Below the pieces are notes generated by a model that searched no databases, was not told the origin of the DNA, and saw only the letters and a program-made list of their open reading frames with translations. From NCBI GenBank assembly GCA_963775555.1, contig CAVZJJ010000003.1, positions 116,813 through 180,812 on the forward strand: DNA of 64,000 nt, given 5' to 3'. Origin of the DNA: an uncultured Bacteroidota bacterium. GTDB lineage: Bacteria > Bacteroidota > Bacteroidia > AKYH767-A > 2013-40CM-41-45. Of this stretch, positions 15,361 through 58,400 are shown piece after piece; position 1 is the first letter of the stretch, and each line of letters starts with the position of its first letter. The translations under genes were made by a program, and so were the position numbers.

Positions 15361-16590
15361 CTAAACTGCCTTTAACTCCTCTTTTTTCACCAACCTTATC
15401 TTCCCGGTTAAGAGATTTTGCATCATGCCTTGCTTTATTGATTTAGTTTTAGAAAGTCTATGTTCAATCAACAATATTTCTTCATTTAAATCTTGTATAA
15501 TTCTCGCAATTCTACTTTGCTCATCTATTTCAGGAAAAGAAATCACAAATTTTGAAAGTGCTTCTTTTGTAATAGTTTTTATAATTCCACCAGGGGCCTT
15601 TTGCTTTTCTATATCGAATAAATTGTAAATTGTTAATACGAAAAAATATTTATCGAAAGGTTCCAAGAATGATTCGAAAATTAATAATGTTCTATCTACA
15701 TAAGCATCATACTGAGTAATTGCAATCCTTCCAATAGAACCTTGAAGTGTAATAATTACTGATCCATTGGGAATAAAAACACTCATAGGTTGAGCCTCTT
15801 TGCTAATTTTTGATTTTGTATCTGCCTTCAATTTAAAATTGTCATCAACATCAAAGACTTGTACAAAAGGATAACCAGAAATATTATCATACCATTTATC
15901 CAAACCATATGGTTGCGGAAAACTTCCCCTTCTATATTTCGCTACCTCTTTCAGAGTTTTTCTTTTCCACCCCTCTCCCGGCTTCAACAACCTCTGCATC
16001 ACCCCCTGTTTAATCTTTCTTTTTTTGTCAATGAGTTTTTCAAGACTGCTGATGAAGGCATCGGCATCGGAGAGGGCGGTGGCAATGGCGGTTTGTTCGG
16101 ATTTAGATTTAGGTATTGAGACTTGAATTGACTTAACAATACTTCCGCTTAAATTAGGTTGGCCTCCTTGAGTATAAGTGTTAATTATTTTATCCTTATT
16201 AAGTTTAAAAAACTGGTATAAATATTCAGCACTTAATGTTGAAGGAATTATTGCTAAAACAGCTTGATTAATTGCTCCAGAAATATTAGTAATTGCTGCT
16301 ACACCAGCTGTAGCACCATACATTGCTAATAGCAACGTTCCCGAAGCAACCATTTTAGCGGATGAATTATCTACGCCCTTTTGAGAAATATACTCGTCTG
16401 TTTGATTTATTCTTCTTTTATTCAGTTCACTTGAACTTATCCAGGATATATTCCCATTATAATATTCGCGTATTGAAGTATTTGGGGTTCCTCCAGAATA
16501 ACAATTTGAAAGCTCACCAATACATTTAAATTCCCAATCTTCTGGAATAACTCCAAACTCTGTTTTCTTATAGCCTGCTTTCAATTCCAT
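15361..16590 (-). CDS. hsdS: Type I R-M specificity subunit
   Basis: 409 aa with two target-recognition halves. Each half is followed by a conserved helical spacer (KKRKIKQGVMQRLL and KTKSIKQGMMQNLLTGKIRL). Overlaps the hsdM 3' end by 10 nt. Confidence 0.85.
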   Translation of the reverse strand: MELKAGYKKTEFGVIPEDWEFKCIGELSNCYSGGTPNTSIREYYNGNISWISSSELNKRRINQTDEYISQKGVDNSSAKMVASGTLLLAMYGATAGVAAITNISGAINQAVLAIIPSTLSAEYLYQFFKLNKDKIINTYTQGGQPNLSGSIVKSIQVSIPKSKSEQTAIATALSDADAFISSLEKLIDKKRKIKQGVMQRLLKPGEGWKRKTLKEVAKYRRGSFPQPYGLDKWYDNISGYPFVQVFDVDDNFKLKADTKSKISKEAQPMSVFIPNGSVIITLQGSIGRIAITQYDAYVDRTLLIFESFLEPFDKYFFVLTIYNLFDIEKQKAPGGIIKTITKEALSKFVISFPEIDEQSRIARIIQDLNEEILLIEHRLSKTKSIKQGMMQNLLTGKIRLVKKEELKAV

Positions 16591-19980: not shown

Positions 19981-21105
19981 TTTTGTAAGTTCAAGTAATA
20001 AGTGCAATTTTTTGTGAGAAGACTTGGTTAGGTGTTTGATAATTAAATTTTCTTACTGGTCTGTTATTAATTATTGATTCTACTATTTGAACATCTATGT
20101 CAGGTACTTTCAATAGGTCTGTTTTCTTTGGGAAGAATCTGCGGATTAATCCTATTCTGTTTTCTACAGTTCCTTTATCTTGTGAGGTATAAGGCCGGGT
20201 AAAATAGGTAGTAGCATTCAGCGATTTTCCTATCGATTCATGTTTACTAAATGCCTTATCGTTGTCAAATGTAAGTGTTTTAACAATTCCCTTTAATGAG
20301 ATTAATCTACGTTTAATTTCGCGCTTTATTATGATGCTGTCTTTCCCGGCTAACCTTGTGAGTTTGGTTTTCAGAGATGCCCGATCCGTCATTACAAGCA
20401 AAGCTCCCTGATGATTTTTTCCCATCATCAGATCTACTTCAAAATCTCCCAAGCGCTTTCTTTTATCTACGATTTTCGGACGATTTTCAATAGACACTCG
20501 GTTTGGAATAATACCCCGGCTATCTCTTCTTAATCCGCGCTTTCTTCTTCTACGTCCATGTGCTAAGTGCATATACAGTTTCTTGTCTTGTCTATCTTCC
20601 TTACAATTACTTTGCTTACAACGCCAAATCCACTTGTAAATGGTCTCGTGGCTGACAAAATCCCCTAACTCATTTTTGCCAACGACATGAATTAATTCCG
20701 GACTGAATTTTATACTCTTCATCCAGAGACGCGTCCACACTTTCATTTCATCGGTAAATCTTTCTTTTTTCATTTTGATTTGATGCCGATGATCCGTTTT
20801 CCGTTGTGCATTTTCAGCTGTGTAAACCAAAGCTCCTCTTCCACGTTTTGGTATATTCCGTTTAAGTTCTCGACTTATCGTGGATGGCGATTTATTTACA
20901 ATTTTCGCAATATCCTTTTGAGCGATTCCGCTTTTTAATAAGGCTTCAATCTGATATCTTTGTTCAGAGTTGAGATGGGTGTAGTTTTTTGACATAAGCA
21001 ATCCAAAGATGAAGCTTCTCAGCTTAACTTTCACCTGGGACAATTAAAAGTCCCAAGGTGAAAGTTTAAATCTTTAAATTGCACTTATTGGTTGAACACG
21101 GCTTT
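19981..21105 (-). mobile_element. IS30-family insertion sequence, copy 1 (1125-bp block shared with copy 2)
   Basis: This block equals 25623-26747 at a constant offset of 5642 nt in every stretch compared. Imperfect terminal inverted repeats are GTTCAAGTAATAAGTGCAATTT and GTTCAACCAATAAGTGCAATTT. Confidence 0.85.
19991..21043 (-). CDS. IS30-family transposase
   Basis: 350 aa with an N-terminal HTH (SEQRYQIEALLKSGIAQKDIAKIV) and a DDE core (FEVDLM..., TFDNDKAF..., ENRIGLIRRF). The translation is identical to the copy at 25633-26685. Confidence 0.9.
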   Translation of the reverse strand: MSQVKVKLRSFIFGLLMSKNYTHLNSEQRYQIEALLKSGIAQKDIAKIVNKSPSTISRELKRNIPKRGRGALVYTAENAQRKTDHRHQIKMKKERFTDEMKVWTRLWMKSIKFSPELIHVVGKNELGDFVSHETIYKWIWRCKQSNCKEDRQDKKLYMHLAHGRRRRKRGLRRDSRGIIPNRVSIENRPKIVDKRKRLGDFEVDLMMGKNHQGALLVMTDRASLKTKLTRLAGKDSIIIKREIKRRLISLKGIVKTLTFDNDKAFSKHESIGKSLNATTYFTRPYTSQDKGTVENRIGLIRRFFPKKTDLLKVPDIDVQIVESIINNRPVRKFNYQTPNQVFSQKIALIT

Positions 21106-25622: not shown

Positions 25623-26747
25623 TTTTGTAAGTTCAAGTAATAAGTGCAATTTTTTGTGAGAAGACTTGGTTAGGTGTTTGATAATTAAATTTTCTTACTG
25701 GTCTGTTATTAATTATTGATTCTACTATTTGAACATCTATGTCAGGTACTTTCAATAGGTCTGTTTTCTTTGGGAAGAATCTGCGGATTAATCCTATTCT
25801 GTTTTCTACAGTTCCTTTATCTTGTGAGGTATAAGGCCGGGTAAAATAGGTAGTAGCATTCAGCGATTTTCCTATCGATTCATGTTTACTAAATGCCTTA
25901 TCGTTGTCAAATGTAAGTGTTTTAACAATTCCCTTTAATGAGATTAATCTACGTTTAATTTCGCGCTTTATTATGATGCTGTCTTTCCCGGCTAACCTTG
26001 TGAGTTTGGTTTTCAGAGATGCCCGATCCGTCATTACAAGCAAAGCTCCCTGATGATTTTTTCCCATCATCAGATCTACTTCAAAATCTCCCAAGCGCTT
26101 TCTTTTATCTACGATTTTCGGACGATTTTCAATAGACACTCGGTTTGGAATAATACCCCGGCTATCTCTTCTTAATCCGCGCTTTCTTCTTCTACGTCCA
26201 TGTGCTAAGTGCATATACAGTTTCTTGTCTTGTCTATCTTCCTTACAATTACTTTGCTTACAACGCCAAATCCACTTGTAAATGGTCTCGTGGCTGACAA
26301 AATCCCCTAACTCATTTTTGCCAACGACATGAATTAATTCCGGACTGAATTTTATACTCTTCATCCAGAGACGCGTCCACACTTTCATTTCATCGGTAAA
26401 TCTTTCTTTTTTCATTTTGATTTGATGCCGATGATCCGTTTTCCGTTGTGCATTTTCAGCTGTGTAAACCAAAGCTCCTCTTCCACGTTTTGGTATATTC
26501 CGTTTAAGTTCTCGACTTATCGTGGATGGCGATTTATTTACAATTTTCGCAATATCCTTTTGAGCGATTCCGCTTTTTAATAAGGCTTCAATCTGATATC
26601 TTTGTTCAGAGTTGAGATGGGTGTAGTTTTTTGACATAAGCAATCCAAAGATGAAGCTTCTCAGCTTAACTTTCACCTGGGACAATTAAAAGTCCCAAGG
26701 TGAAAGTTTAAATCTTTAAATTGCACTTATTGGTTGAACACGGCTTT
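25623..26747 (-). mobile_element. IS30-family insertion sequence, copy 2, inserted in the last codons of the ATPase gene
   Basis: Same 1125-bp block as 19981-21105. The final ~12 codons and the stop of the ATPase ORF (26708-26747) lie inside this block. Confidence 0.85.
25633..26685 (-). CDS. IS30-family transposase
   Basis: 350-aa translation identical to the product of 19991-21043. Confidence 0.9.
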   Translation of the reverse strand: MSQVKVKLRSFIFGLLMSKNYTHLNSEQRYQIEALLKSGIAQKDIAKIVNKSPSTISRELKRNIPKRGRGALVYTAENAQRKTDHRHQIKMKKERFTDEMKVWTRLWMKSIKFSPELIHVVGKNELGDFVSHETIYKWIWRCKQSNCKEDRQDKKLYMHLAHGRRRRKRGLRRDSRGIIPNRVSIENRPKIVDKRKRLGDFEVDLMMGKNHQGALLVMTDRASLKTKLTRLAGKDSIIIKREIKRRLISLKGIVKTLTFDNDKAFSKHESIGKSLNATTYFTRPYTSQDKGTVENRIGLIRRFFPKKTDLLKVPDIDVQIVESIINNRPVRKFNYQTPNQVFSQKIALIT

Positions 26748-41739: not shown

Positions 41740-42348
41740 GTGAAAGCACCCACACTCCTTCAAAAACTTTTTCCATCCATGACGTGGCGTATGCGTGGAG
41801 TAGGGAAAAAAATTTATCTAACCTTCGATGATGGGCCCAACCCTGAGGTAACGCCCTGGGTGCTGGATACCTTGTCAGCTTATAATGCAAAAGCTACTTT
41901 TTTTTGCATCGGTACCAATGTGATGAAACATCCTCAACTTTATCAGGAAATAATCAAACAAGGTCATCAAACAGGAAATCATACACAGCATCACCTCAAC
42001 GGATGGAAAGTAAAGAATAAGGAGTACTTTGAAGATATCGAAGAATGTCGCAAACTTGTCAATTCTTGCCTCTACCGTCCACCTTATGGAAAAATAAGGC
42101 CATCGCAAATCAGGTATTTAAAAAATAATTATAAATTGGTGATGTGGGATGTAATCAGTCAGGATTATGATGCAGCGCAAACCGCGGATCAATGCTACCA
42201 AAGGGTCATCAGGGAATACCGCGAAGGCTCCATAATTGTTTTTCACGACAGTTTGAAAGCGGAGAAGAGATTGCGTGGTTCACTTCCGTTAATTATGGAT
42301 CATCTAAGGGAGAGAGAATTTGAATTTCTCCGCATTGAAGAACAATAA
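41740..42348 (+). CDS. Polysaccharide deacetylase (NodB homology domain, CE4)
   Basis: YLTFDDGPNPEVTPWVLDTLSAYNAKATFFCIG and GNHTQHH motifs. 202 aa. Confidence 0.8.
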   Translation: MKAPTLLQKLFPSMTWRMRGVGKKIYLTFDDGPNPEVTPWVLDTLSAYNAKATFFCIGTNVMKHPQLYQEIIKQGHQTGNHTQHHLNGWKVKNKEYFEDIEECRKLVNSCLYRPPYGKIRPSQIRYLKNNYKLVMWDVISQDYDAAQTADQCYQRVIREYREGSIIVFHDSLKAEKRLRGSLPLIMDHLREREFEFLRIEEQ

Positions 42349-42430
42349 TTTTCTTCTGAAAAAAAATGAAAAAGGTACCCAAAAAAGAAAGTCTAATGCC
42401 ATCCTTTCCAGATTCAATTTGACCTCTCAA

Positions 42431-43309
42431 ATGAATACTAAACTTCTGTTCCTGCTTATTTTGTTGCTCTTTCAACTTCCTGTTGACGCGCAACAACAAC
42501 GGGGAACAATTGGACTTGGAGTATCAGCGGGAGCTTCAAATTATGCAGGAGATCTTGATGATAACTTCACACTTCCTTTTACCCGGCCCGGCTTTGGTGC
42601 TCATGCGATTTTTTTATTCCGACCACGTATATTTTTACGGCTTGCTGTTTTTCATGGAAGAATCACAGCGAGTGATGCAACCAGTGTAAATTTAACAGGA
42701 AACCAATACCGGAATTTAGGATTCTATTCAGACATCAATGAGGCTGGTTTGCACATCATTTATTCCCTTCAGAGCAGGAAACGCGGCTTCTCCCGCAGGA
42801 ACTTTGCAACACCTTACATCTTCGCCGGAATTGCGTATTTCCAATTTAATCCAAAGTGGAATGTAAACGATGAAGTGTATGAACTACAAAAGATAGGGAC
42901 AGAAGGACAGTACCTCGTAGGAGATTATCCGGCACCATATTCTTTACAGCAATTTTCTATTCCTTTTGGAATAGGCTTTACATTAAAAATCAGCGCAAAT
43001 TTTGACCTTGGTGCAGAGATTGGACTTCGTAAAACCTTTACGGATTACCTCGATGATGTGAGTGGCATTTATCCTGACAAGCAACTTCTAACTCAGGAAC
43101 AAGGTCCGGTTGCGGCCTATCTTTCAGACCCTTCAAACGATCCCGCTCATCCTGAAGGAAAGCCCAACTTCAGCCAACGGGGTGCTCCAAAAAATAAAGA
43201 TTGGTATGTATATACGAATGTGCACCTTACTTATTATTTCACCACCAATCTTTTCAAGCCATACAAACCCAAAAGCAAATTTAAAGAGAATAGCTGTAAA
43301 GGTTTATAA
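42431..43309 (+). CDS. Outer-membrane beta-barrel protein (DUF6089-like)
   Basis: Start moved to M38 (MNTKLLFLLILLLFQLPVDAQQ signal peptide). Gly/aromatic-rich beta-strand pattern (GLGVSAGASNYAGDL...). Confidence 0.5.
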   Translation: MNTKLLFLLILLLFQLPVDAQQQRGTIGLGVSAGASNYAGDLDDNFTLPFTRPGFGAHAIFLFRPRIFLRLAVFHGRITASDATSVNLTGNQYRNLGFYSDINEAGLHIIYSLQSRKRGFSRRNFATPYIFAGIAYFQFNPKWNVNDEVYELQKIGTEGQYLVGDYPAPYSLQQFSIPFGIGFTLKISANFDLGAEIGLRKTFTDYLDDVSGIYPDKQLLTQEQGPVAAYLSDPSNDPAHPEGKPNFSQRGAPKNKDWYVYTNVHLTYYFTTNLFKPYKPKSKFKENSCKGL

Positions 43310-43623: not shown

Positions 43624-44529
43624 TTAATATGGACGGGCATAGTACAAGGACAGGTTATTGTTATTATAAACATAGTTCATGTCCGTTGCATCAGCCGTAC
43701 CATCGCCTGTACAATCCGTTAGAAGGTAATCGTAGAGGGAAAGGTTGTTGTCATTATAAACATAATTCATATCCACAGCATCCACTGTACCATCCTGGTT
43801 CACATCTCCACTGTAGAAGGCAAATACTCCGCCAACATTCTGCATTGGAGGCTTCGTACCATCATCATAAGCACGTGTGATCAGGTCGCTAAAATCATAC
43901 AGAACAGCCGTAGATGACAAGGCCACTTCAATACTGCTCCATGTCTCGATGCTGCTCTTGTGTTTCACGGCAATGTAATAGTTACCCGCAGGAGCAGTAG
44001 CGAAGTTCACTGATGCCGAACCATTGTTGTGAAGGATGACCTGCTCTGAATAGTCAGGATCAAGATTTCCAAGACTTATGCTGGCAGCGGTCCAAAGATT
44101 AACCTGTATAGTATCAGTTGCATCTGGGCTGTACGGTCCAGTCAGTATTCCACCCTGTTCAAGATCATACAATGTACTAAACATCATGGTCGGACCAGAA
44201 CTGATAATGTACCCTTCAAGGAATAACTTCAGATCAAGATTTACCCCACTTATATCGATGGTCAGGATCAAGGTGCTTACGTGAGCACAACCGGCAAGAT
44301 TTACACCTGTGTGTGTATAGGTGCCGCTTGTTGTGTAAGTAATTCCATTCACCGCCCATGTATAGGAGTTGGTAGCTGTGATAGTCTCTGTGGAAGACGT
44401 GCTGTTACGAATCGTCAGGTTCAATGTAGCCGTTGAATCACAACCCGCTGCATTTGTTGAGCTATAGGTATAGACTCCCGATGCAGTGTAAGTCGTGCCG
44501 TTCCATGTATAGCTGTCACAGACATCCAC
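43624..44529 (-). CDS. C-terminal 301-aa segment of the giant protein with dockerin-like Ca-binding repeats
   Basis: Last Cys repeats, then a beta-rich region, then GDVNQDGTVDAVDMNYVYN and DCTGDGTADATDMNYVYN (DxNxDGxxDxxD pairs). No T9SS CTD-like tail. Confidence 0.6.
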   Translation of the reverse strand: MDVCDSYTWNGTTYTASGVYTYSSTNAAGCDSTATLNLTIRNSTSSTETITATNSYTWAVNGITYTTSGTYTHTGVNLAGCAHVSTLILTIDISGVNLDLKLFLEGYIISSGPTMMFSTLYDLEQGGILTGPYSPDATDTIQVNLWTAASISLGNLDPDYSEQVILHNNGSASVNFATAPAGNYYIAVKHKSSIETWSSIEVALSSTAVLYDFSDLITRAYDDGTKPPMQNVGGVFAFYSGDVNQDGTVDAVDMNYVYNDNNLSLYDYLLTDCTGDGTADATDMNYVYNNNNLSLYYARPY

Positions 44530-47500
44530 GGTTGAACTTGAAGTGTAGCGTAACGAATCGTCAGGTTCAATGTAGCCGTTGAATCACAACCCGCTGCATT
44601 GGTTGAACTATAGGTATAAACTCCCGATGAAGTATAAGTCGTACCATTCCATGTATAGCTGTCACAGACATCCACGGTTGAACTGGAAGTTGTAGCAGAA
44701 CGAATCGTCAGGTTCAATGTAGCCGTTGAATCACAACCCGCTGCATTGGTCGAGCTATAGGTATAAACTCCCGATGCAGTGTAAGTCGTGCCGTTCCAGG
44801 TATAACTGTCACAAACATCCTCGGTCGCACTGGACGTTGAACTGTTTCTGATCGTTAGGTTCAATGTAGCTGTAGAATCACAGCCTGCTTCATTAAGCGT
44901 GCTATAGGTATAAACTCCGGATGCCGAGTAGGTATTTCCGTTCCAGGTATAGCTGTCACAGACATCCACGGTTGAACTGGAAGTTGTGGCATAACGAATC
45001 GTCAGGTTCAATGTCGCTGTTGAATCACAACCTGCTGCATTTGTTGTGCTGTATGTATAAACTCCGGATGCATTGTAGGTCGTTCCGTTCCAGCTGTAGC
45101 TGTCACAAACATCCATGGTTGAACTTGAAGTTGAACTGTTTCTGATCGTCAGGTTCAAAGTAGCTGTTGAATCACAACCTGCTGCATTCAATGTAGAATA
45201 AGTATAGGTTCCACTTGAAATGTAGGTCGTGCCGTTCCATGTATAGCTGTCACAGACGTCCACCGTGCTGCTTGATGCAGTGCATAACGGATCGTTAAGT
45301 TCAAGGTAGCCGTAGAATCACATCCCGCCGCATTCAATGTGGAATATGTATAAGTTCCCTGAAGTGTAGGTTGTTCCGTTCCAGGTATAGCTGTCACATA
45401 CATCTTCGGTAGTACTTGATGTTGCTGCATAACGGATAGTCAGGTTCAACGTTGCTGTAGAATCACAACCTGCTGCATTCAATGTGGAATAAGTATAGGT
45501 TCCACTTGAAGTGTAGGTAGTACCGTTCCATGTATAGCTATCACAGACATCTCACGTGCTGCTTGATGATGTAGCATAACGGATCGTTAAGTTCAAGGTA
45601 GCCGTAGAATCACATCCGCTGCATTGCAGATGTGAATAATGTATAGGTTCCACTTGAAGTGTAGGTGTTCCGTTCCAGGTATAGCTATCACATACATCCA
45701 TCAGTGCGTACTGGACGTTGTCGCTATACGAATCGTCAGGTTCAATGTAGCTGTTGAATCACAACCTGCTGCATTGAGCGTGCTATAGGTATAAATTCCC
45801 GATGCAGTATAGGTTGTTCCGTTCCATGTATAGCTGTCACATACATCCACTGTACTGGACTTGAGTTGTCTCGTGACGAATTGTCAGGTTCAATGTCGCC
45901 GTTGAATCACATCCTGCTGCATTTGTAGTTGAATAGGTATAGATTCCGGATGCAGTATATGGTCGTTCCGTTCCAGGTGTAGGTGTCACACACATCTACT
46001 GTTGAGCTTGATGTGGTGGCATAACGAATCGTTAAAGTTCAGATGTAGCAGTAGAATCACAACCTGCTGCATTTGTTGTGGAATAGGTATAAGTTCCGGA
46101 TGCGGTATAAGGTAGTTCCGTTCCAGGTGTAGCTGATCACAAACATCTACGGTGGAACTGGAAGTTGTAGCATAACGAATCGTCAGGTTCAGTGTAGCCG
46201 TTGAATCACATCCTGCTTCATTTAAGCTGTGGAATAGGTATAAGTTCCGGATGCTGTATAGGTCGTTCCGTTCCAGCGTGTAGCTGTCACACACATCTAC
46301 GGTTGAACTGGATGTTGTGCTATAACGAATCGTCAAGGTTCAATGTAGCCGTTGAATCACAACCTGCTTCATTGAGCGTGGAATAAGTATAGGTTCCGGA
46401 TGCTGTATAGGTGTTCCGTTCCACGTATAGGTATCACATACATCTACTGTTGAGCTTGATGTGCTGAGCTATAGCGAACCGTTAAGTTCAGGGTGGCTGT
46501 AGAATCACAACCTGCTGCATTTGGTTGTGGAATAGGTATAGGTTCCTGATGCCGTATAGGTTGTTCCGTTCCATGTATAGGTATCACACACATCCTGGTC
46601 GTACTGTGACGTTGAGCTATTGCGGATCGTCAGGTTCAAGGTCGCTGTTGAATCACAACCTGCTGCATTGCGTTGAACTATAGGTATAGACTCCGGATGC
46701 TGTATAGGTCGTTCCGTTCCACGTATAGGTATCACATACATCTACGGTTGAACTTGATGTGCTGAGCTATAGCGGACCGTTAAGTTCAGGGTGGCTGTAG
46801 AATCACAACCTGCTGCGTTTAGCGTGTGAATAAGTATAGACTCCGGATGCGGTATAGGTCGTTCCGTTCCACGTATAGCTATCACACACATCTTCGGTGG
46901 TACTGTGACGTTGAACTGTTTCTGATCGTCAGGTTCAATGTAGCTGTTGAATCACAACCTGCTGCATTTGTTGTTGAATAAGTATAAGCTCCGGATGCCG
47001 TATAGGTCGTTCCGTTCCAGGTATAGCTATCACACACATCTTCGGTTGTACTGCGATGTTGAGCTATTACGAATCGTCAGATTCAATGTCGCTGTTGAAT
47101 CACAACCTGCTGCATTGAGCGTTGAATAGGTATAGATTCCGGATGCTGTATAAGTTGTTCCGTTCCATGTATAGCTATCACACACATCCCGGCAGTACTT
47201 TTGATGTTGAACTGTTTCGGATCGTCAGGTTCAAGGTAGCTGTTGAATCACAACCTGCTGCATTCGGTGTGCTATAAGTATAAACTCCGGATGCGGTATA
47301 AGTTGTTCCGTTCCAGGTATAGCTATCACACACATCTACGGTGGAGCTTGTTGATGTTGAGCTATAACGGATCGTTAAATTCAAGGTCGCTGTTGAATCA
47401 CATCCTGCTGCATTTGGTTGACTAAGTATAAGCTCCGATGCAGTGTAGGTCGTTCCGTTCCATGTATAGCTGTCGCAAACATCCTCGGTTGTACTGGAAG

Positions 47501-50500
47501 TTGTACTATAACGAATCGTCAGGTTCAATGTCGCTGTTGAATCACAACCTGCTGCATTTGTTGATGCTATAAGGTATATACTCCGGATGCTGTATAAGTC
47601 GTTCCGTTCCATGTATAGGTGTCACATACATCTACGGTTGAGCTGGACGTTGTGAGCATAACGAATCGTCAGGTTCAAAGTCGCTGTAGAATCACAACCT
47701 ACTGCATTTAGCGTGGAATAGGTATAGACTCCGGATGCTGTGTAGGTAGTTCCGTTCCAGGTATAGCTGTCACAAACATCCACGGTGGAACTTGAAGTTG
47801 TAGCTATTTCGAATCGTCAGGTTCAATGTAGCCGTTGAATCACAACCTGCTGCATTAAGCGTGCTATAAGTATATACTCCGGATGCAGTATAGGTCGTTC
47901 CGTTCCAGGTATAGCTGTCACAAACATCTACGGTTGAACTTGAAGTTGTCCTGTAACGAATCGTCAGATTCAATGTCGCTGTTGAATCACAACCTGCAGC
48001 ATTGCGTGGCTATAGGTATAAACTCCGGATGCAGTATAAGTCGTTCCGTTCCAGGTATAACTGTCACACACATCTACGGTTGAACTGGAAGATGTTGACT
48101 ATAACGAATCGTCAGATTCAGTGTAGCTGTTGAATCACAACCTGCTGCATTGATGGTGCTATAGGTATAAACTCCCGATGCGGTATAAGTCGTTCCGTTC
48201 CAGGTATAACTGTCACAAACATCCTCGGTCGCACTGGACGTTGAACTGTTTCTGATCGTTAGGTTCAATGTAGCTGTAGAATCACAGCCTGCTTCATTAA
48301 GCGTGCTATAGGTATATACTCCGGATGCCGTGTAGGTATTTCCGTTCCAGGTATAGCTGTCACACACATCCACGGTTGAACTGGAAGTTGTGGCATAACG
48401 AATCGTCAGGTTCAATGTCGCTGTTGAATCACAACCTGCTGCATTGGTTGAGCTGAAGGTATAGGTTCCCGATGCTGTGTAGGTCGTTCCGTTCCATGTA
48501 TAGCTGTCACATACATCCACAGTACTACTTGATGTTGTCGCGTAACGAATCGTCAGGTTCAATGTAGCTGTAGAATCACAGCCTGCTTCATTAAGCGTGC
48601 TATAGGTATAAACTCCGGATGCCGAGTAGGTAGTTCCGTTCCAGGTATAGCTGTCACAGACATCTACGGTTGAGCTGGAAGTTGTGCATAACGAATCGTC
48701 AGGTTCAAGTGTCGCTGTTGAATCACAACCTTCTGCATTTTAAGTTGAATAGGTATAAACTCCCGATGCAGTGTAGGTCGTTCCGTTCCATGTATAGCTG
48801 TCACATACATCTTCAGTACTACTTGATGTTGAACTATCATCGTCAGGTTCAAGGTAGCAGTTGAATCACAACCTGCTGCATTTGTTGAATAAGTATAGAC
48901 TCCCGATGCAGTATAGGTCGTTCCGTTCCAGGTATAGTATCACATACATCTACTGTACTGCTTGATGTTGTAGCGTAACGAATCGTCAGGTTCAGTGTAG
49001 CCGTTGAATCACAACCAGCTGCATTTGTTGAGCCAAAAGCATAAACTCCGGATGCGGTATATGTTGTTCCGTTCCAGGTATACTGTCACATACATCTACG
49101 GTTGAACTGGAAGTTGTGGCGTAACGAATCGTTAAGTTCAATGTAGCCGTTGAATCACAACCTTCTGCATTGTAAAGTTGAATAGGTATAAACTCCCGAT
49201 GCAGTGTAGGTCGTTCCGTTCCAGGTATAGCTATCACATACATCCTCAGTACTACTTGATGTTGTCCTGTAACGGATCGTCAGGTTCAAAGTAGCCGTTG
49301 AATCACAACCTGCTGCGTTTAACGTGGAATAGGTATAGGTTCCCGATGCAGTGTAGGTAGTTCCGTTCCAGGTATAGCTGTCACATACATCTACAGTACT
49401 ACTTGATGTTGTAGCATAACGAATCGTCAGGTTCAGTGTAGCCGTTGAATCACAACCTGCTGCATTTGTTGTGCTGATAAGCATATACTCCGGATGCGGT
49501 ATATGTTGTTCCGTTCCAGGTATAGGTATCACACACATCTACGGTTGAGCTTGAATGTTGTGGCATAACGAATCGTTAAGTTCAAAGTAGCTGTTGAATC
49601 ACATCCCGCTGCATTTAGTGTGAGTATAGGTATAGGTTCCCGATGCAGTGTAGGTCGTACCGTTCCATGTATAGCAGTCACACACATCTTCGGTTGAACT
49701 GGAAGTTGTGCTATAACGATCGTCAGATTCAATGTCGCTGTTGAATCACAACCTGCTGCATTGGTGGAATAGGTATAAACTCCCGATGCAGTGTAGGTCG
49801 TGCCGTTCCAGGTATAGCTGTCGCAAACATCCACGGTTGAACTGGAAGTTGACGCGTAACGAATCGTCAGGTTCAGTGTAGCTGTTGAATCACAACCAGC
49901 TGCATTTGATGAGGAAGGCATAAACTCCCGATGCAGTATAAGTCGTGCCGTTCCAGGTATACGAATCACAAACATCTACGGTTGAACTGGAAGTTGTGCA
50001 TAACGAATCGTCAGGTTCAATGTAGCTATTGAATCACAACCCGCTGCATTTGTTGAGCTATAGGTATAGACTCCCGATGCAGTGTAGGTCGTACCATTCC
50101 ATGTATAGCTGTCACAAACATCTACGGTTGAACTGGAAGTTGTGCCATAACGAATCGTCAGATTCAATGTAGCTGTTGAATCACAACCCCTGCATTTGTT
50201 GAGCTGAAGGTATAGGTTCCTGATGCGGTATAGGTAGTTCCGTTCCAGGTATAGCTGTCACAAACATCCTCGGTCGCACTGGACGTTGAACTGTTTCGAA
50301 TCGTCAGGTTCAAAGTAGCCGTTGAATCACAACCTGCTGCATTTGTTGTGCTATTGGTATAAACTCCCGATGCAGTATAAGTCGTGCCGTTCCATGTATA
50401 ACTGTCACAAACATCCTCGGTCGCACTGGACGTTGAACTGTTTCTGATCGTTAGGTTCAATGTAGCTGTAGAATCACAGCCTGCTTCATTAAGCGTGCTA

Positions 50501-50575
50501 TAGGTATAAACTCCCGATGCAGTGTAGGTCGTACCATTCCATGTATAGCTGTCACAAACATCCACGATTGAACTG
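44400..50575 (-). repeat. Tandem array of about 42 coding repeats of 147 bp (49 aa: DVCDSYTWNGTTYTASGVYTYS.xNAAGCDSTATLNLTIR.S.TSSST.)
   Basis: Marker ATCGTCAGGT recurs at 44411, 44557 and 44704 (spacings of 146 and 147 nt). Units diverge mostly at synonymous or linker positions. More divergent copies flank the array (44260-44400, 50575-50700, 52500-54100). Confidence 0.85.
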
Positions 50576-52482
50576 GAAGTTGAACTGTTTCTGATCGTCA
50601 GTACCAGCTCCTCGGTATGACATCCCACTAAATCAGTAAAGGTTCCACTTGCGTTATAGGTCTGTCCGTTTACACCCCACATGTATGAATCACATGCAGA
50701 AGTTGTCGTAGAGTTAAAAGTGCTTGGATTTACTTCAAGATCTACAACAACACTAGTATCAGAGCCTACAGTATTGCTCCAGATTGCACGATATTTTTTA
50801 CCGTTATCTGAAGCACTCGTAGTGAAAATGAGATCTGGATTGTTAGCGTTTAAAATATCACTCCAGTTCAATCCTCCATTTGTACTAACTTGCCATTGTA
50901 CTGTCGGAGCAGGGTCACCACTGGCATCGGAGAAGAAGTAAACATCCTCTCCTTCACATACACTTTGAGAAAGCGGATCTGTAACCACAATTGGCGGACT
51001 GATGAAATTACCACTAACCCAAATCGGGCCGGTGATACTGCTTAGTGTACCATTCACTCCTCCATTTACAGTATTACCTGCGGTGAGTCCACAACCTTCA
51101 TTGAAGCTCCAGCGTCCGAGTAAACCTGTTCCACCGGTAAGTTCTATACCGTAATTTGTAAGGATTTCAGCAGGGGTTCTTTCCACGTTCCATATTCTTA
51201 CCTCATCAATTTTACCATTGAAGAAACCTGCGGCTGCTCCTGCAGATGTAAGGGCGCTTCCTATAGCAGCATGTTGTATGCTGGTGTTGGCGGGAACAAT
51301 GTTTGAGCCAATATCCAGTGTTTTATCCAATACTCCGTTAATGTAAAGATTCCACACAGCATTAACAGGTTCATAAGTGGCTGCCACATGCGTCCATGTA
51401 TTGGATGGGATGGTGGCATTGCCTATGACAGAATGATTAGGCCCTGTACCTTCTTCAAAGTCTGCCGCAAGCTTGTTGCCAACCAGACCCATAAAATAAT
51501 TCATATTGACATTGGCAGGACTTTCTGCTTCTCCTCTTCCTTTCGTAACAATAGGAACTGCAGCTGTAGTACCTTCAAAGCCACCACCACCTGCACCACT
51601 GGTAGTTGTGGTAACTCCAGTTCCTTCAATTTTAATCCATGCCTCCAAAGTAAAAGTAGAAGCATTCAAAGCAGGGGATGCTGCACCAAAAGAAACGTAA
51701 TCACTTGTGCCATTAAAATCCAGATTGGAAGCTCCGGAAAGAGCTTCATCAAATCCTGCGGCCCATGAAGGTGTATTCACCAGGTTAGCGACAGGCGCGG
51801 CTCCCACAGAGTTTGAAGCAACAATTCCGGTTCCTTCATTGAATCCCCAACGGGAAGCGAGTCCGGTACCACTGCTAAGTTCCAAATTGTAATTCGCGAG
51901 AATCTCTGCATCGCTCCTGACTACATTCCAAATCCTGACTTCATCAATCCGGCCGGCAAAATATCCTGTCGCGGCACCTGTTGAAATGAAAGAAGAGCCG
52001 ATACAAGCTTTAACATTGCTTAAAGATTGCGGAGTGTAACTTGCTCCTAAAATAAGAGTCTGATCGAGTACTCCATTTACATACAATTTCCAGGTATGTA
52101 ATGCAACATCATAGCTTGCCGCAACGTGCGTCCAGCAATTGCCCAATACAGCATTTCCTGTAACCGGATGGTTTCCGGATGCAGCATTGTCCTCAAAATC
52201 GGCATTTAGTTTCTTTGTCGTAAGATCATATCCAAAAATATAATTCACATCTTGAGCTGCAGTTTCTGCTTCCGCCTTCCCTTTTGAAATGATGGGAACT
52301 ATATTTGCAAGGCCCCCATTACCAGAACTTGTAACAACTCCGGTTCCTTCAATTTTTATCCAGGCCTCCAGGGTGAAGTTTGTGAGATGCAAAGAAGCAT
52401 CATTTCCTAAATCCACAAGTTGTGAGTTCGCAGGCAAGAGGGCTACTGAAAAAGATGTTGGACATGTATTAATAGTCAACAC
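50164..52482 (-). CDS. 772-aa middle segment of the giant protein (2 LamG, Ig-like, first Cys repeats)
   Basis: Begins ...LTINTCPTSFSVALLPANSQLVDLGNDASLHLTNFTLEAWIKIEG, parallel to an internal segment of the 2945-aa ORF. Joined to that ORF by repairing one base near 52528-52533. Confidence 0.7.
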   Translation of the reverse strand: MLTINTCPTSFSVALLPANSQLVDLGNDASLHLTNFTLEAWIKIEGTGVVTSSGNGGLANIVPIISKGKAEAETAAQDVNYIFGYDLTTKKLNADFEDNAASGNHPVTGNAVLGNCWTHVAASYDVALHTWKLYVNGVLDQTLILGASYTPQSLSNVKACIGSSFISTGAATGYFAGRIDEVRIWNVVRSDAEILANYNLELSSGTGLASRWGFNEGTGIVASNSVGAAPVANLVNTPSWAAGFDEALSGASNLDFNGTSDYVSFGAASPALNASTFTLEAWIKIEGTGVTTTTSGAGGGGFEGTTAAVPIVTKGRGEAESPANVNMNYFMGLVGNKLAADFEEGTGPNHSVIGNATIPSNTWTHVAATYEPVNAVWNLYINGVLDKTLDIGSNIVPANTSIQHAAIGSALTSAGAAAGFFNGKIDEVRIWNVERTPAEILTNYGIELTGGTGLLGRWSFNEGCGLTAGNTVNGGVNGTLSSITGPIWVSGNFISPPIVVTDPLSQSVCEGEDVYFFSDASGDPAPTVQWQVSTNGGLNWSDILNANNPDLIFTTSASDNGKKYRAIWSNTVGSDTSVVVDLEVNPSTFNSTTTSACDSYMWGVNGQTYNASGTFTDLVGCHTEELVLTIRNSSTSSSIVDVCDSYTWNGTTYTASGVYTYSTLNEAGCDSTATLNLTIRNSSTSSATEDVCDSYTWNGTTYTASGVYTNSTTNAAGCDSTATLNLTIRNSSTSSATEDVCDSYTWNGTTYTASGTYTFSSTNAGVVIQQLH

Positions 52483-52498
52483 AACAGTAGCCGATGAG

Positions 52499-55400
52499 TC
52501 ACATCCACCAGTTCCTGTAAGTCCGGTTGGTAGTGTATGTACCTGAAGTGGTATAAGTAACGCCGTTCCATGTATAGCTGTCGCAAGCAGTCACCGTTGT
52601 ACTGGATGTGGGATTTCCATCAATGATCAAATGCAATGTATCTGTGGATGCACATCCTGCATTGGTATAGTTGTAGAGATAAGTACCGCTGGAAGTGTAG
52701 GTCGTACCGGTTCCGGCAGCCCATGTATAACTCGTACATTCAGTTATGCTACTTGAATTATGCAGTGAGTTAAGCGTGAGTACTACCGTAGCTGACGAAT
52801 CGCATCCGCCTGCATTCGTAAATCCGGTCGTGGTGTAGGTACCTGAAGAAGTATGGGTAATACCATTCCATGTATAACTATCACAGGCCGTTATTGGTGT
52901 GCTTGAACTGGTATTAGCACCCGCGTCAAATCCAAGTGTCCACGCAGGACTGCTAACCAGGATTGCGCTTGGTCCACCTGCAACTGAATTGGCAGCAACG
53001 GATCCACTGCCTTCGTTTAATCCCCAACGAGCCGCTAGTCCTGTACCGGTTAATAATTCTGCATTGTAGTTGGCAAAAATTTCGGCATCAGTTCTCACTA
53101 CATTCCATATTCTTACTTCATCAATTTTACCTGCAAAGAATCCTTCCAATGTTCCGGTTGAACTGAGGGTGGATCCAATGCATCCATTCACATTACTTAA
53201 GGATTGAGGTACATAAATCGAATCTAAGACTAAAGTTGTATCCAAAATTCCGTTGATATAAAGTTTCCAGGTATGAAGCGGAACATTATAGCTGGCAGCT
53301 ACATGTGTCCAGCAGGTGCCTAAAGTGGAACGAGAGATCACCGGATGATTATTTGAGTTGGTATTGTCCTCGAAATCGGCGGCCAGTTTATTGGCTGCGG
53401 CGTTGTAACCAAAAATATAATTTTCGTCTTTAACAGGATCTTCAACTTCACCTTTTCCTTTTGCAAGGATTGGAGCAATGTCAACTCCTCCTGAACCTGA
53501 AGTGACTGAAACACCGGGTCCTTCTATTTTGATCCATGCCTCGAGAGTAAAATTGGTGAGATGCAAGGATGGATCATTGCCCAAGTTTAAATATTGCTGG
53601 CTGGCAGGAACAAATGTTAAGGCGGAAGAAGAACAGGAATTAATTGTGAGTACCACGGTCGCTGATGAATCACAACCTGATAGAGTTAACAAACCGGTGG
53701 TTGTGTAAGTTCCCGAAGTGGTATGAGCGACTCCATTCCATGTGTAAGTATTACATGCAGTAACAGAAGTGCTTGAAGTTGAATTCGCGCTGATCGTAAG
53801 ATGCAGAGTATCCATAGATGCACATCCGGCTCCATTTGTGTAGCTGTATAAATACGTACCACTTGAAGTGTAAGTAATTCCATTACCTGATGCCCATGTA
53901 TAACTTACACAGTCGTAAACAGTGTTTGAGTTATGTGTACTGTTGTTAATCGTCAGGACCACAGTAGCGGAAGAATCACATCCGGCAGCATTATTGAGTC
54001 CGGTTGTAGTATAAACTCCAGAGCTGGTATAAGTAACACCGTTCCATGTATAGCTATCACAATCAGTTATCGAAGTGCTCGATGTGGAAGCAAGTCCGCT
54101 TATTGTCAGGGTGGCGGCATTCGATGTATCAGCACCATAAGCATTGGTGAAGATAGCCCTGTATTGATTTCCATGATCAGAAGCACTGGTTGTAAAAGAT
54201 AAGGTGGCATTCACCGCAGCTAAAATATTATTCCAGTTTACCCCGCCATTTGTGCTAAGCTGCCATTGTACTGTCGGTGTTGGATCACCACTTGCGGCAG
54301 AAGTGAAGGAAACCAGGTCACCTTCACATTTCGCTTGAGAGACCGGATGAGTTGTCACCTGCGGTGGTGTTGAACCGGTTGCAGTAAAGGACCATACCGG
54401 TCCTGTTGTGCTGCTGTCTCCATCAGACACTACCATATACCATTCGTATTCTACTCCCTCAGTCAAAGAGGGCCACTGAATGCAGCTCACTGAACCGGAA
54501 GGCACGTTGGTATTGGTACCCAGCAATACAAATTCCGAAGTCAGGTTTACAGGTAAGGTAAATTGACTGCTGGCTCCTGTGAAAGAAGTGTTACTGTAAG
54601 GTGAATAGGTCTTTACACTTAAAAGATTTTGATCAGGCAGGAACTGCATGAAGCGCAAATATCCGTTTCCTCCATTGGTATAACCACTTTGGTAATCGGA
54701 CATCAATGTATGAACCGTATTGCCGAGGTAGGTATCTGAACGACGGCCTTCGCCGGGTACGTGACCTGCCAGCATGAGGATAAGGTTGGGGTTGTCTTTC
54801 AGGTCATCGTAAATCTTCTGACCCGGTCCCTGGAAAGCTCCCGGATTTCCAGTTCCTAAAATATTGTGACTTGATATAATTCCTTTACGGTTACTGTATT
54901 TTTTTAATAAAGAATCTGCCCAATTCAACACCGGTTGCATCGAGGCGGTTGTTCCGTTCGCATAATATTCAATGCTGATGTTTATAAAGTCTATTCCACC
55001 ACCGCTGAACAATTGGAAGTGGTTATCATTATTGGAACCATAATGGCCACCATAGTAAGCTCGGCCATTAAATCTTGATCCGAAAAACTGTGTATAGTAT
55101 GTAGTCGTTCCATCCGGATTTCCGATAGGTCCCTGATCATGATTACCTACACAAATACCATAAGGAACTCCGTCTGCAATCGGAACATTGGGATACTCAA
55201 GATTTTTCATTGAAGTATCGGCCCTTTGCCATTCGATAAGGTTCGCGTCCCCGTTTTGTGCACAGTCACCTAAATGCGATACAAAAACAATATTACTGTC
55301 AATCCTGTGATCAGCGACCCATTGAGTTTGTGATCTGAAGATTCCATTTTTCCCTCCGCCACCACTGTTTTGACCTTGTGGTTCTTCGGTATAGAATTGT

Positions 55401-58400
55401 GTATCCGGTAATCCGACAATTGCGAATTTCGCACCTGTGCCATTTTTCGGCCTGCCATAAAATTGTACCAGGAGAGCGTCTCCATTTGGATCGCTCACGG
55501 TAGCACAAATATTCGGGCTGGTTGAACCTGAATTGGCAAGATCAGCCGGTGAAGGATTCGTTGGCTGATTGGGTGCCTGACTTGGAACAAGTGAATAATT
55601 GATTGTCAACTTAGGCCGGTCAGCTTGCACGGGATGTTCCCTTGATCGTAATTGCTGTCCATCATCAGCGTGGGTGGCAATCATCAACCAACCATTATTC
55701 GTCAGGTTGCCATCGATCCAATCCTGAATGGTGGATGCTGGAACAGGCACTGTAATGGATCCTACATAGGTATCCACTCCGGGCCAGTTGGCATTTATTG
55801 CGGTCTCCGCATCGACGTTGTCAGCTGCAAAGTGTCTGTTACCAATGGAGGCAAAGCTTGCTGTCGCCTCGTTCCACGGAACCAACATACGGTACATATT
55901 AAATCCCTGCCCTTCAACACCAACATAAAATTGCAACTCGGCAGATGTGATAATAGCTCCGGAAGGAATAGAAGAAAGATCAAAAAGTAAGAGGGAAGTT
56001 CGGTCATCCGGTGGTGTGTTACCAGGGTTTTTATCCTGAATAAAACTGGTATCTGCCCCATGCGTAATGGTTGGATCGACATCATAAATATAAGTGTCCC
56101 TTGTTCCGCTGTAAGCATTGAGTCCGTCCTGAAGTACGATGGATGAAGCTGGAGTCGAAGCAGTGCCGGTTACGGCTACATTTTGGGTAACGGCACCGAT
56201 ACTTGTATGTTGAATATTACCACTGGACGAACCAGCTGAAGCCCGGTTGAAGCGCACATAAATTGTTGTGGATGCTACGGAACCACCGGAGGGATGTAAA
56301 GTGATTGAGGAACTAAAATTGCTGGCCGGAAGTGTAGATATCTCAAAATTAAGCGGAGCCGTAATTAAAATACTATCGGTCAGATTGCTTCCAGATACTG
56401 TGTAACTCTGACTAGCTGATGGTGTTCCAGTCTGACTATTGAATGCACTAAGTGGTGTGCCTGAAATATTAATGGAAGGACCACTGGAAGTAGAATAGGT
56501 TACCGTCAATTTAGGCCGGTCCGCCTGTGATGCATGCTCCCTTGATCGTAATTGCTGGCCATCATCCGCATGAATGGCAATCATCAACCAACCATTATTG
56601 GTCAGGTTGCCATCGATCCAATCCTGAATAGTAGATGCGGGTACAGATACTGTTATATATCCTGTATAAGTATCCACACCAGGCCAAATCGAATTTACTG
56701 AAGATTCAGCATCGATATTATCAGGCAGAAAATGCCTGCCGCCAAGTGAAGTATAGCTGACAGTTGCCTCATCCCAGGAAGTCAGCATACGGTGCATGTT
56801 AAATCCCTGACCTTCCGCATCAACGTAAAATTGTAATTCAGCTGATTGGATGGTAGCTCCGGGAGGAATAGAAGAAAGGTCGAAAAGCAATAGTGCTTTA
56901 CGCTCATTTGGAGGAACATCTGCAGGATTTTTATCCTGTATAAATGTAGTTTCAGCACCACGTACGGTACCAGGTGAAGTTTCCCATATATAGGTATCCC
57001 TTGTACCGCTGTATCCATTCAGTCCATCCTGTAAGACCAGGGTTACAGGTCCTGTTCCGATCGTGGTAAAACTCCAAACCGGAGACCAGCTACTTGTACC
57101 ATCTGTATTTGTGGCATTTACTCTCCAGTAATAGACTGTACTATTTGCTAAAGCAGGACTCACAGCAACTGAAGTGCCGGCAATGGCACTTTGGTTAAAT
57201 ACAGTTGTACCAAAACCGGAACTGGTCGATACCTGCACCTGATATGTGTTTGCTCCGGCTGAAGCGTTCCAGCTCAAAGTTGGCGAAAGGGCGATTCCTG
57301 TTGAAGCATCTGCGGGTGAAATTAATGTTGGTGCGGCAGGTGGAGTAGCGGCTGGAATTGCCAAGGCATATTCTGTGCCTGTGGCCCCCGTTACTGTTAG
57401 TGTGTTCGCACCCATATCAAGAGTAGCTGATGCATCAGTCCATGCTCCCACTGAAATATTATCTCTCTTCACCAGCTTAAGACCGCTTTCGCTTATCACA
57501 GCGGGGTTACCGGTATAATTATAAACCAAGGTATAAGTAGGTGTCGCAGTTCCAATTGCTCTTACTCCCCAGAACCTGGATGCGTCCAGAGAATATCCAA
57601 CAAGTCCTGTGGAACCGCTTCTTATTGCATTATCATCCGCACGGTAAACTTGTATTCCAGAAATGGTTCCCGAGGTTGTAGTTGCAGTAAGAGCATCTCC
57701 ATTCGCATGATTTAATGTAGCTGTATATCCGCCGGCAGCCACATAGTCGTATGCCGAAGCATCGCCTAAGGCAGCACCGCTCCATAGATGATCAGTACCT
57801 GCATCCATGTTGATCATGGTACCATCATTGTTGTTTGATGTCTCATCATTCATGCTAGTTCCTGATGTTTCATCAAACCTCCAATAACCAACTAAGCCGG
57901 ATTCATTGCCGATTAATTTCTTAGTCATGTTTGACTTGATGTCGGCATCTGTCCGGGCGACATTCCATAATCTCACCTCATCGATGGAGCCCTGAAAAAA
58001 TCTTGCAGCAGTAGAGGGATCATTGGCAATTTCCAGGATGTTTGTGCTATTAACAATAGCCGCTGTAAACGCAGTTGTACCTTCCAGTACTCCATTGATA
58101 TACATCTTGGTGTTTACACCATCATATGTCGCGGCAACATGAATCCATGCCCCGGTTGAAGGATAAGAGGTAGTCGACAATGCTCGTGAAGCGTCATTAC
58201 CATTAAATCTACAGTATACAAACCCGGCACTTCCACAATACAACTCATATCCGGTTCCGCCACCTATAATGCCACATTTTTTTAATATGGACATTGTACC
58301 CACCTTGGTGGGTTTGATCCAGGCTTCCATAGTGATGGCCGTTCCTGATATTTGAATTGATGGATTATTTCCACAGTCTATATAATCATTAGTACCATCA

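Follow-up and report, generated by a model that had tools for sequence, protein, structure and literature searches.

A densely frameshifted 147-bp repeat array in a giant surface-protein gene of an uncultured Bacteroidota bacterium: very probable assembly errors in a most likely intact gene

The giant gene and its surroundings

The window, a 64,000-nucleotide stretch of one contig of an uncultured Bacteroidota bacterium, carries on its minus strand a conceptual giant gene for a secreted or surface protein, which is split into many ORFs in the deposited assembly (Table 1). The minus-strand ORF map is unbroken from the ATG at 61336 to the stop at 43624, and the pieces differ by frame switches only. 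The N-terminus, MNTFYFSKFRKAIAVLNFISIISTVVLFTTKISSAQG, was judged by eye to be signal-peptide-like. The 2,945-aa ORF that begins there matches Pfam PF13385 (2e-71) and the NCBIfam DNRLRE model NF033679 (1.6e-36), and it is separated from the 772-aa ORF by a frameshift at ~52.53 kb, where CDSYTWNGVTYTTSGTYT resumes as GLTGTGGCDSSATVVLTIN in a different frame; the counterpart units of other genomes read SYTTTGLTNAAGCDSSATV at this motif. An earlier note on this DNA had described a giant adhesin-like gene, a reasonable description in view of the signal-peptide-like N-terminus, the LamG, DNRLRE and Ig-like domains and the tandem beta repeats. It had missed the extension of the gene to 61336 and the ~52.53 kb frameshift.

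Table 1. Features of the giant gene and its neighbour, in window coordinates
Feature	Position	Strand	Basis
Giant gene (conceptual, ~17.7 kb, ~5,900 codons; secreted/surface protein)	43624..61336	-	ORF map
N-terminal ORF, 2,945 aa, intact; Laminin_G_3 x3, DNRLRE, Ig-like	52499..61336	-	Pfam/NCBIfam
Lone 1-nt frameshift, insertion-like, within a solitary divergent two-Cys motif copy	52500..52560	-	Sequence read directly
772-aa ORF, intact; Laminin_G_3 x2, Ig-like; extends into array units 1-3	50164..52482	-	Pfam PF13385, 5.9e-41
Repeat array, 42 tandem 147-bp units	44380..50568	-	TRF, unit alignment, corrected translations, AF2
Error block, ~54 frameshifting indels	44546..50190	-	Frameshift-aware DP, per-unit counts
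C-terminal module: one degenerate repeat, then ~200 aa with two terminal dockerin-like (EF-hand-like) DxDxDG segments	43624..44379	-	Translation
Convergent neighbour, PorG-like type IX secretion system protein	42320..43309	+	NCBIfam NF052316

Pfam and NCBIfam models revealed no type IX secretion system (T9SS) sorting domain, either of type A (PF18962/TIGR04183) or of type B (PF13585/TIGR04131), in the C-terminal 208-301 aa. Dockerin_1 (PF00404) scores 20.5 bits on the C-terminal module, below its cut-off of 22.9; the sequence shows two DxNxDGxxD-like segments. Many metagenome proteins share the module, with 35-50% identity. The neighbouring protein matches NF052316 with an E-value of 1e-35 and 123 bits, slightly below the cut-off of 130. 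This PorG-like gene adjoins the giant gene.

The two-Cys repeat and its relatives

TRF reported a single array at 44407-50582 with a period of 147, 42.0 copies and 80% matches, and anchoring on GAYGTNTGYGA in the coding (minus) strand likewise gave 42 units. Each unit encodes a 49-aa two-Cys beta repeat with a Ser/Thr linker, and the frame-corrected consensus DVCDxYTWNGTTYTASGxYTYSxxNAAGCDSTATLNLTIR is present in every one, so that the corrected translations also confirm the ~42 two-Cys units of the earlier description. The variation of units mainly at third positions and in the linker, claimed in the same place, is borne out by a core-codon diversity of 0.089, 0.079 and 0.317 at codon positions 1, 2 and 3, respectively, among the 12 indel-free units, the linker being more variable. 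The structural modelling suggested there was carried out with AF2 on two units and gave an all-beta model with a pLDDT of 93.8. The unit has no match in Pfam or NCBIfam other than spurious sub-threshold ones (DUF2695, NF038215), and a PDB sequence search with it returned no significant match, only compositional ones to antibody light chains. Each unit is predicted to form a small beta module stabilised by a disulfide, with Ser/Thr linkers between the units; a protein built in this way would therefore probably project from the cell as a long beta-rich stalk.

Copies of the repeat ('CDSYTWNG...GCDS..TL.LTI') that are 45-81% identical occur in 183 stretches of GTDB species genomes, the hosts being Ferruginibacter, Chitinophagaceae, Saprospiraceae, Flavobacteriales, Bacteroidales, Niastella and Lishizhenia, and homologous arrays run to at least 32 units in one frame. 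At 78 related loci of other genomes, the units are in a single frame almost everywhere; a few loci show two frames or a broken frame, and two of these have contig names that suggest long-read assemblies. None of the arrays examined elsewhere is frameshift-riddled to the degree of the window array. Most of the homologous Bacteroidota proteins carry the annotation 'hypothetical' or 'T9SS type A sorting domain-containing protein', and many of them end in a PF18962 or PF13585 sorting domain, whereas the giant protein of the window does not. The array is most likely a selectively maintained, normal part of a gene for a giant (~5,900-aa) secreted surface protein in a Chitinophagaceae-like Bacteroidota genome.

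A second copy of the locus was sought in several collections. A search of 20 relatives yielded no orthologue of the giant gene, the same-genus matches being only ~35% identical, and the exact sequence of the neighbouring 1,026-aa protein had no match in an independent assembly. A scan of metagenome contigs with the C-terminal 301 aa gave best identities of 44-59% and no second copy of the organism. In a search of 5.8 billion proteins, the only 100% match was the window's own 266-aa gene call, followed by a match of 69% over 26% of the query.

Frameshifting indels in the array and in the assembly

The lengths of 27 of the 41 measured units are not divisible by 3, and tracking of five conserved peptide anchors in three frames recorded ~42 net frame changes within the array. 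Frameshift-aware alignment to a PSSM built on 131 intact paralogous units resolved 54 frameshifting indels (35 of +1, 18 of -1 and 1 of -2), the first at ~50190 and the last at ~44546, with up to 4 in a unit. The fragmentation of the array had thus been noticed correctly, while the earlier figure of at least 12 pieces was too low. Two finer details of that description agree with the present counts: the 146-bp unit seen near 44530 corresponds to unit 41, which has lost 1 nt at ~44546, and the zone given as densest, 45.3-47.2 kb, is close to units 26-34 (~46.9-45.6 kb), in which the indels are densest.

Neither homopolymers nor short SSRs occur at the shift sites, the longest run in the unit consensus being 3 or less, and no slippery motif shared among the sites was found, their contexts being non-repetitive. 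Regulated expression, in the form of phase variation via slippage or repeat recombination or of programmed ribosomal frameshifting, is extremely unlikely in view of these sites and of the number of shifts, since translation could not pass through all of ~54 independent shifts. Tandem repeats of surface proteins can indeed alter their copy number by recombination, but as 147 is 3 x 49, changes in the number of units remain in frame and cannot produce 1-nt shifts. An alternative genetic code and programmed frameshifting were also considered and dismissed, the breaks being frame changes at unrelated, non-slippery sites.

A genuine pseudogene is a further explanation, according to which one member of a set of five paralogous giant surface-protein genes has lost its function and real single-base indels are building up in its array. 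Four intact paralogues could render the array-bearing copy dispensable, the gene has the additional upstream frameshift at ~52.5 kb, and a purely technical cause driven by repeats would not readily leave the other arrays of the same assembly clean. The pattern of substitutions, however, is against decay. The 131 intact paralogous units define 23 columns with an invariance of at least 97%, and at these only 9 of 872 residues (1.0%) depart in the window array, as compared to 19 of 3013 (0.6%) in the intact arrays and to ~52-174 departures expected under neutral decay with 54 real indels and an indel:substitution ratio of 1:3 to 1:10. Only 3 in-frame stops are left after frame correction. Nor are the lesions gene-wide, as 54 of them lie in 5.65 kb of the array and 1 in the remaining ~12 kb of the gene. 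Units further from the array ends carry more indels (rho 0.42, p 0.006), a gradient without a mutational rationale. Bacterial mutation is usually deletion-biased, whereas insertions exceed deletions both in the array (35:19) and genome-wide (66:19). A pseudogene is thus distinctly unlikely, the more so as lesions of the same type are present in the sole copy of dnaA and in fusA. The earlier suggestion of a decaying gene, perhaps with slippage-variable expression, is not supported in view of the lack of substitutional decay, the insertion bias, the lack of slippery tracts and the indels in essential genes.

The state of the rest of the assembly is informative in this respect. It consists of 4 contigs, and its CheckM completeness is only 81.6%. 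When it was compared with the ORFs of a 400-kb portion of a relative in the same family, the 200 orthologs sampled displayed 85 frame-split HSP junctions, of which 66 were insertion-like and 19 deletion-like. The splits are clustered in tracts, with 46 in 67 kb aligned at 420-520 kb of contig C4 and 0 at 1120-1200 kb of the same contig. Essential genes are broken, namely fusA (EF-G; contig C4, 448-451 kb) by 5 indels, dnaA by 3 and guaB (IMP dehydrogenase) by 5, mainly through insertions at non-repetitive sites, while their proteins are 82-89% identical to those of a relative of another genus. A fourth conserved gene (322 aa) has 6 insertions in 972 nt, which at 1 per ~160 nt is the highest density measured in unique sequence. 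A screen for error blocks by ORF-poor windows was insensitive, and the array itself was not flagged by it.

The ~54 indels of the array are very probably consensus errors of an error-prone assembly rather than mutations, and the gene would be intact. This explanation is favoured by the occurrence of indels without substitutions at conserved sites, and by the same type of lesion, with a matching spectrum, in essential single-copy genes of the same assembly. If the indels are sequencing or assembly errors, the gene is most likely intact and ordinary. Against the explanation by consensus errors stands the density of indels in the array, which at 1 per ~113 nt exceeds the maximum for unique sequence. 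The insertion excess is also weaker in the array (65%) than genome-wide (78-90%).

The earlier note had offered errors in a repeat that is hard to polish as one of two alternatives, without choosing between them. While consensus errors are strongly supported by the internal and genome-wide evidence, the repeat-specific cause stands only in part. In the same assembly, four paralogous arrays built of this repeat are frame-intact, and one of them, at 48.5-75 kb of contig C4, comprises 92 units in an open frame of 8,851 codons; its units are as similar to one another (78% identity) as those of the affected array, and some of them are identical. Difficulty in polishing repeats cannot therefore explain why a single array is affected. 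As unique-sequence blocks are also riddled with indels, a failure of polishing specific to repeats is an incomplete explanation. Multi-mapping of polishing reads would predict a correlation between the indel density of a unit and its similarity to other units, and none was found (rho -0.10 and 0.00).

Long-read genome and metagenome assemblies typically retain residual indels and frameshifts, and short-read polishing fails in repeats (PMC8812927; bioRxiv 10.1101/2021.08.23.457338). The source assembly resembles them in the splitting of conserved genes, including essential ones, by 1-nt indels, in its low marker completeness despite few contigs, in the lack of evolutionary decay and in the persistence of errors where unique read placement fails. 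Its errors are, however, not homopolymer-centred, unlike those of a typical nanopore consensus, and they are insertion-biased and lie in discrete blocks, with equally difficult paralogous arrays remaining clean. The assembly is probably derived from long reads and incompletely polished. Correction or polishing may have relied on reads with an anchor in the unique flanking sequence, and so have failed in the interior of the array; alternatively, the array stretch may be one of the unpolished blocks of the assembly, and strain-level heterogeneity of the array in the metagenome may have aggravated the errors. Candidate technical causes are a low depth at this locus, gaps filled with poorly corrected reads, and strain heterogeneity.

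Two further readings include real lesions. A mixture of one or a few real lesions, such as that at ~52.5 kb or a few in the array, with many technical indels is distinctly unlikely. Lone shifts in otherwise clean tracts of the window, at ~18.25 kb in hsdM and at 52.5 kb in the giant gene, are indistinguishable from mutations without reads, and true phase variation or inactivation is frequent in restriction-modification and surface-protein genes; these shifts are, however, of the same 1-nt type as the errors in essential genes, and nothing in the sequence sets any of them apart. It is very unlikely that the array indels are real and reflect a localised, insertion-biased indel hypermutation of one array in a recently silenced paralogue, for example through error-prone repair or replication of the array tract. 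Such hypermutation, if true, would amount to a mutational process that has not been described for protein-coding repeats of 147 bp.

Relation to giant surface filaments and significance

GhpA of Aureispira is a protein of 5,898 aa with 52 Ig-like repeats, intramolecular disulfides and Ser/Thr O-glycosylation (bioRxiv 10.1101/2024.01.29.577165). The filaments of GhpA and of SprB of Flavobacterium johnsoniae come from the same phylum, Bacteroidota, and are similar in size (~5,900 aa) to the giant protein, which also resembles them in its signal-peptide-like N-terminus, its long runs of small Cys-containing beta repeats, its Ser/Thr-rich linkers and its binding-type domains at one end. Foldseek analysis of the two-unit model revealed the GhpA neck (9flp_A) as the best PDB match (probability 0.97, E 0.012), although the fold match is weak, with a TM of 0.39 on the query and 18% identity. 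Furthermore, the 49-aa unit of the window is about half an Ig domain, as compared to the Ig-like repeats of GhpA, and the C-terminal module of the giant protein is dockerin-like, with no recognised T9SS sorting domain. The stalk of the giant protein would probably bear its LamG and Ig-like domains as binding domains.

The source genome represents its species in the reference set searched, and dense blocks of 1-nt indels fragment its genes, depress its completeness estimate and inflate its pseudogene counts. The main value of the analysis is hence one of caution, as accounts of a 'decaying giant adhesin' or of a 'phase-variable array' based on this genome would be spurious. A minor positive by-product is the characterisation of the 49-aa two-Cys unit, which is without a Pfam or NCBIfam model, widespread in Bacteroidota and confidently predicted to be all-beta. 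In the giant protein, the repeats are paired with the dockerin-like module and not with a recognised T9SS sorting domain, and the unit builds the stalks of very large surface proteins, of up to ~9,800 codons in the source genome.

Layout of the giant gene and its repeat array

The source assembly (4.2 Mb, 41% GC) consists of four contigs, among them C2, C3 and C4, and the window corresponds to C3:116813-180812. Tandem Repeats Finder revealed a single array in the window (period 147, 42.0 copies, 80% matches), which is encoded on the minus strand, and the ORF map of that strand displays one long reading unit from the ATG at 61336 to the stop at 43624. The N-terminal ORFs of this giant gene start with a signal-peptide-like segment and carry Laminin_G_3, DNRLRE and Ig-like domains. 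At the ~52.53 kb junction the frame changes once, within a solitary divergent copy of the two-Cys motif, and a PorG-like gene converges on the 3' end. Array and giant gene alike are real features, ordinary representatives of the already known giant, repeat-rich surface proteins of Bacteroidota.

Coordinates of features in the window and on contigs C2 and C4 of the source genome (identities are protein identities to an other-genus relative)
Feature	Position	Strand	Remark
2,945-aa ORF, intact	52499-61336	-	ORF map
772-aa ORF, intact	50164-52482	-	ORF map
Repeat array	44407-50582	-
~30 short ORF pieces	across array	-	ORF map
301-aa terminal ORF	43624-44529	-	ORF map
C-terminal module	43624-44250	-
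UvrD-like helicase region	4452-6702	+	helicase ORF stops at 6329
PD-(D/E)XK nuclease fragment	6268-6702		weak match, E 2e-4
hsdM	16581-19017	-	two ORFs, break ~18,250
IS30-like element, copies	19981-21105; 25623-26747
Giant gene with two-Cys repeat	C4:48524-75076		92 motif copies; 8,851 codons
Giant gene with two-Cys repeat	C4:2010124-2018958		24 motif copies; 2,945 codons
Giant gene with two-Cys repeat	C4:2429444-2437879		28 motif copies; 2,812 codons
Giant gene with two-Cys repeat	C4:838627-857430		11 motif copies; 6,268 codons
EF-G (fusA)	C4:448845-450972		5 indels; 88% identity
DnaA (dnaA)	C4:1057978-1059414		3 indels; 89% identity
IMP dehydrogenase (guaB)	C4:1001453-1002925		5 indels; 82% identity
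EF-G2-like paralogue	C2:559089-561166		frameshifted, split in two frames

Frameshifts in the array and across the assembly

Anchoring on the DVCD-encoding motif yielded 42 units; 41 unit lengths were measured, and 27 of these are not divisible by three. Five peptide anchors traced through the three frames indicated ~42 net frame changes. When each window unit was aligned in a frameshift-aware manner to a position-specific matrix of 131 intact paralogous units, 54 frameshifting events were recorded (35 insertions and 18 deletions of one base, plus one deletion of two bases), extending from ~50190 (unit 3) to ~44546 (unit 41); a unit has at most four, and density peaks in units 26-34. The earlier note's description of a frameshift-riddled array is thus correct, and conservative; its observation that units vary mostly at third positions is likewise borne out by core diversities of 0.09, 0.08 and 0.32 at codon positions 1, 2 and 3.

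The same note had proposed either a decaying adhesin-like gene or long-read or consensus errors. After frame correction, all 42 units read DVCDxYTWNGTTYTASGxYTYSxxNAAGCDSTATLNLTIR followed by a Ser/Thr linker. Substitutional decay was looked for at the 23 columns whose invariance in the intact arrays reaches 97% or more and was not found, as evident from departures at 9 of 872 residues (1.0%) in window units against a background of 19 of 3013 (0.6%), where roughly 52-174 would be expected if the 54 indels were real, at indel:substitution ratios of 1:3 to 1:10. The indels are insertion-biased and occur in non-repetitive contexts, the unit consensus having no homopolymer longer than three; units farther from the array ends hold more of them (Spearman 0.42, p 0.006), and the number per unit shows no relation to a unit's similarity to other units. 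Within the giant gene, 54 indels fall in 5.65 kb of array and one in the remaining ~12 kb. Neutral decay of a dead gene would not look like this: the kept consensus, the indel spectrum, the position gradient and the distribution within the gene all fit a consensus corrected from the flanks inwards, or left uncorrected.

To survey the assembly beyond the array, 301 ORFs (200 aa or longer) were taken from 400 kb of a closed same-family relative (G012) and searched by tblastn against the whole source genome. The 200 orthologue-like matches (91,406 aligned residues) include 85 adjacent HSP pairs split between frames (66 insertion-like, 19 deletion-like), clustered in tracts; C4 420-520 kb, for instance, has 46 in its 67 kb of aligned sequence, against none at C4 1120-1200 kb or 1900-1920 kb. 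Essential genes were checked by frameshift-aware protein-to-DNA alignment to the other-genus relative (see table). Another conserved gene has up to six insertions in 972 nt; these and the indels of fusA, dnaA and guaB all lie at non-homopolymer sites; no second copy of dnaA was found in the source genome. A cell with broken fusA, dnaA and guaB is not viable, and the assembly therefore has many technical indels, with which a CheckM completeness of 81.6% at only four contigs is in line. Error-rich tracts, including C4 420-520 kb and 960-1120 kb, adjoin clean ones and make the assembly a mosaic; the window array falls on one of the error blocks.

Four other loci of the source genome carry the two-Cys repeat, and in each the array keeps an intact frame. 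Inter-unit identity in the 92-unit array is 78%, as in the window array, and identical unit pairs occur there; since this array is equally repetitive yet intact, repeat structure alone does not explain the hot spot. Low local depth, or filling of the stretch with poorly corrected long reads, is a plausible cause, as is heterogeneity of array length or sequence among co-assembled strains. No independent assembly of the source organism was found in the collections searched. The dense frameshifts of the array are best explained, with high probability, as an assembly artefact.

Elsewhere in the window, the two hsdM ORFs (type I restriction-modification methylase) match positions 3-123 and 123-310 of the N6_Mtase profile; the tract around this isolated 1-nt-type frameshift is clean, and the shift reflects either an error or a true inactivation. 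The nuclease fragment lies in another frame than the UvrD-like helicase, suggesting a frameshift at ~6,300 in an AddA-like helicase-nuclease. The two IS30-like copies (1,125 bp, 100% identical, direct), each with a 350-aa ORF bearing an HTH_38 domain, are separated by ~4.5 kb holding a Porphyromonas-type peptidyl-arginine deiminase-like ORF, and may form a composite transposon with it.

The repeat family and a possible role of the giant protein

The two-Cys repeat family is widespread in Bacteroidota, with relatives in 183 stretches of GTDB species genomes; the closest (75-81% identity) belong to Ferruginibacter/Chitinophagaceae MAGs, and other carriers are Saprospiraceae, Flavobacteriales, Bacteroidales, Niastella, Longitalea and Lishizhenia. 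In nearly all related loci the units share one frame, and a stretch examined holds up to 32 of them. In a few loci the frame is broken or the units are spread over two frames; two of these, L081 (JADJJH010000002.1) and L059 (JBAOIC010000040.1), are from MAGs whose contigs have names ('tig...', 'np2-np3') that point to long-read assembly. Other public long-read MAGs probably carry the same artefact in this repeat family.

In many homologous repeat proteins the C-terminus is a T9SS sorting domain (type A or type B), whereas the window gene product and its paralogues end in a ~200-aa module with two dockerin-like segments, which matches Dockerin_1 below the Pfam threshold and otherwise no family model. 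That of the 8,851-codon paralogue is ~90% identical to the window module. This module (LFLEGY...YYIAVKH...DVNQDGTVDAVDMNYVYN...; loci L027-L056) is conserved, with 35-50% identity, among many metagenome proteins from freshwater and activated sludge, and may serve as an alternative means of anchoring or sorting.

No Pfam or NCBIfam model matched the two-Cys repeat, and no sequence relative was found in the PDB. AlphaFold2, supplied with a 60-sequence alignment of two-unit segments, gave a confident all-beta model (pLDDT 93.8) with four strands per unit, whose top structural match, a weak one, is the neck of GhpA (Foldseek E 0.012, TM 0.39). GhpA, a heptameric grappling-hook T9SS substrate of Aureispira, is 5,898 aa long and has 52 Ig-like repeats; it contains intramolecular disulfides and is glycosylated at Ser/Thr (bioRxiv 10.1101/2024.01.29.577165). 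It offers an attractive analogy for a possible mode of action of the giant protein. By this analogy, the giant protein may form a rigid, disulfide-stabilised stalk presenting LamG and Ig domains, and the stalk would probably be glycosylated. The practical value of the array frameshifts is a warning on this assembly, and the two-Cys repeat draws attention to a common repeat domain without Pfam or NCBIfam coverage.
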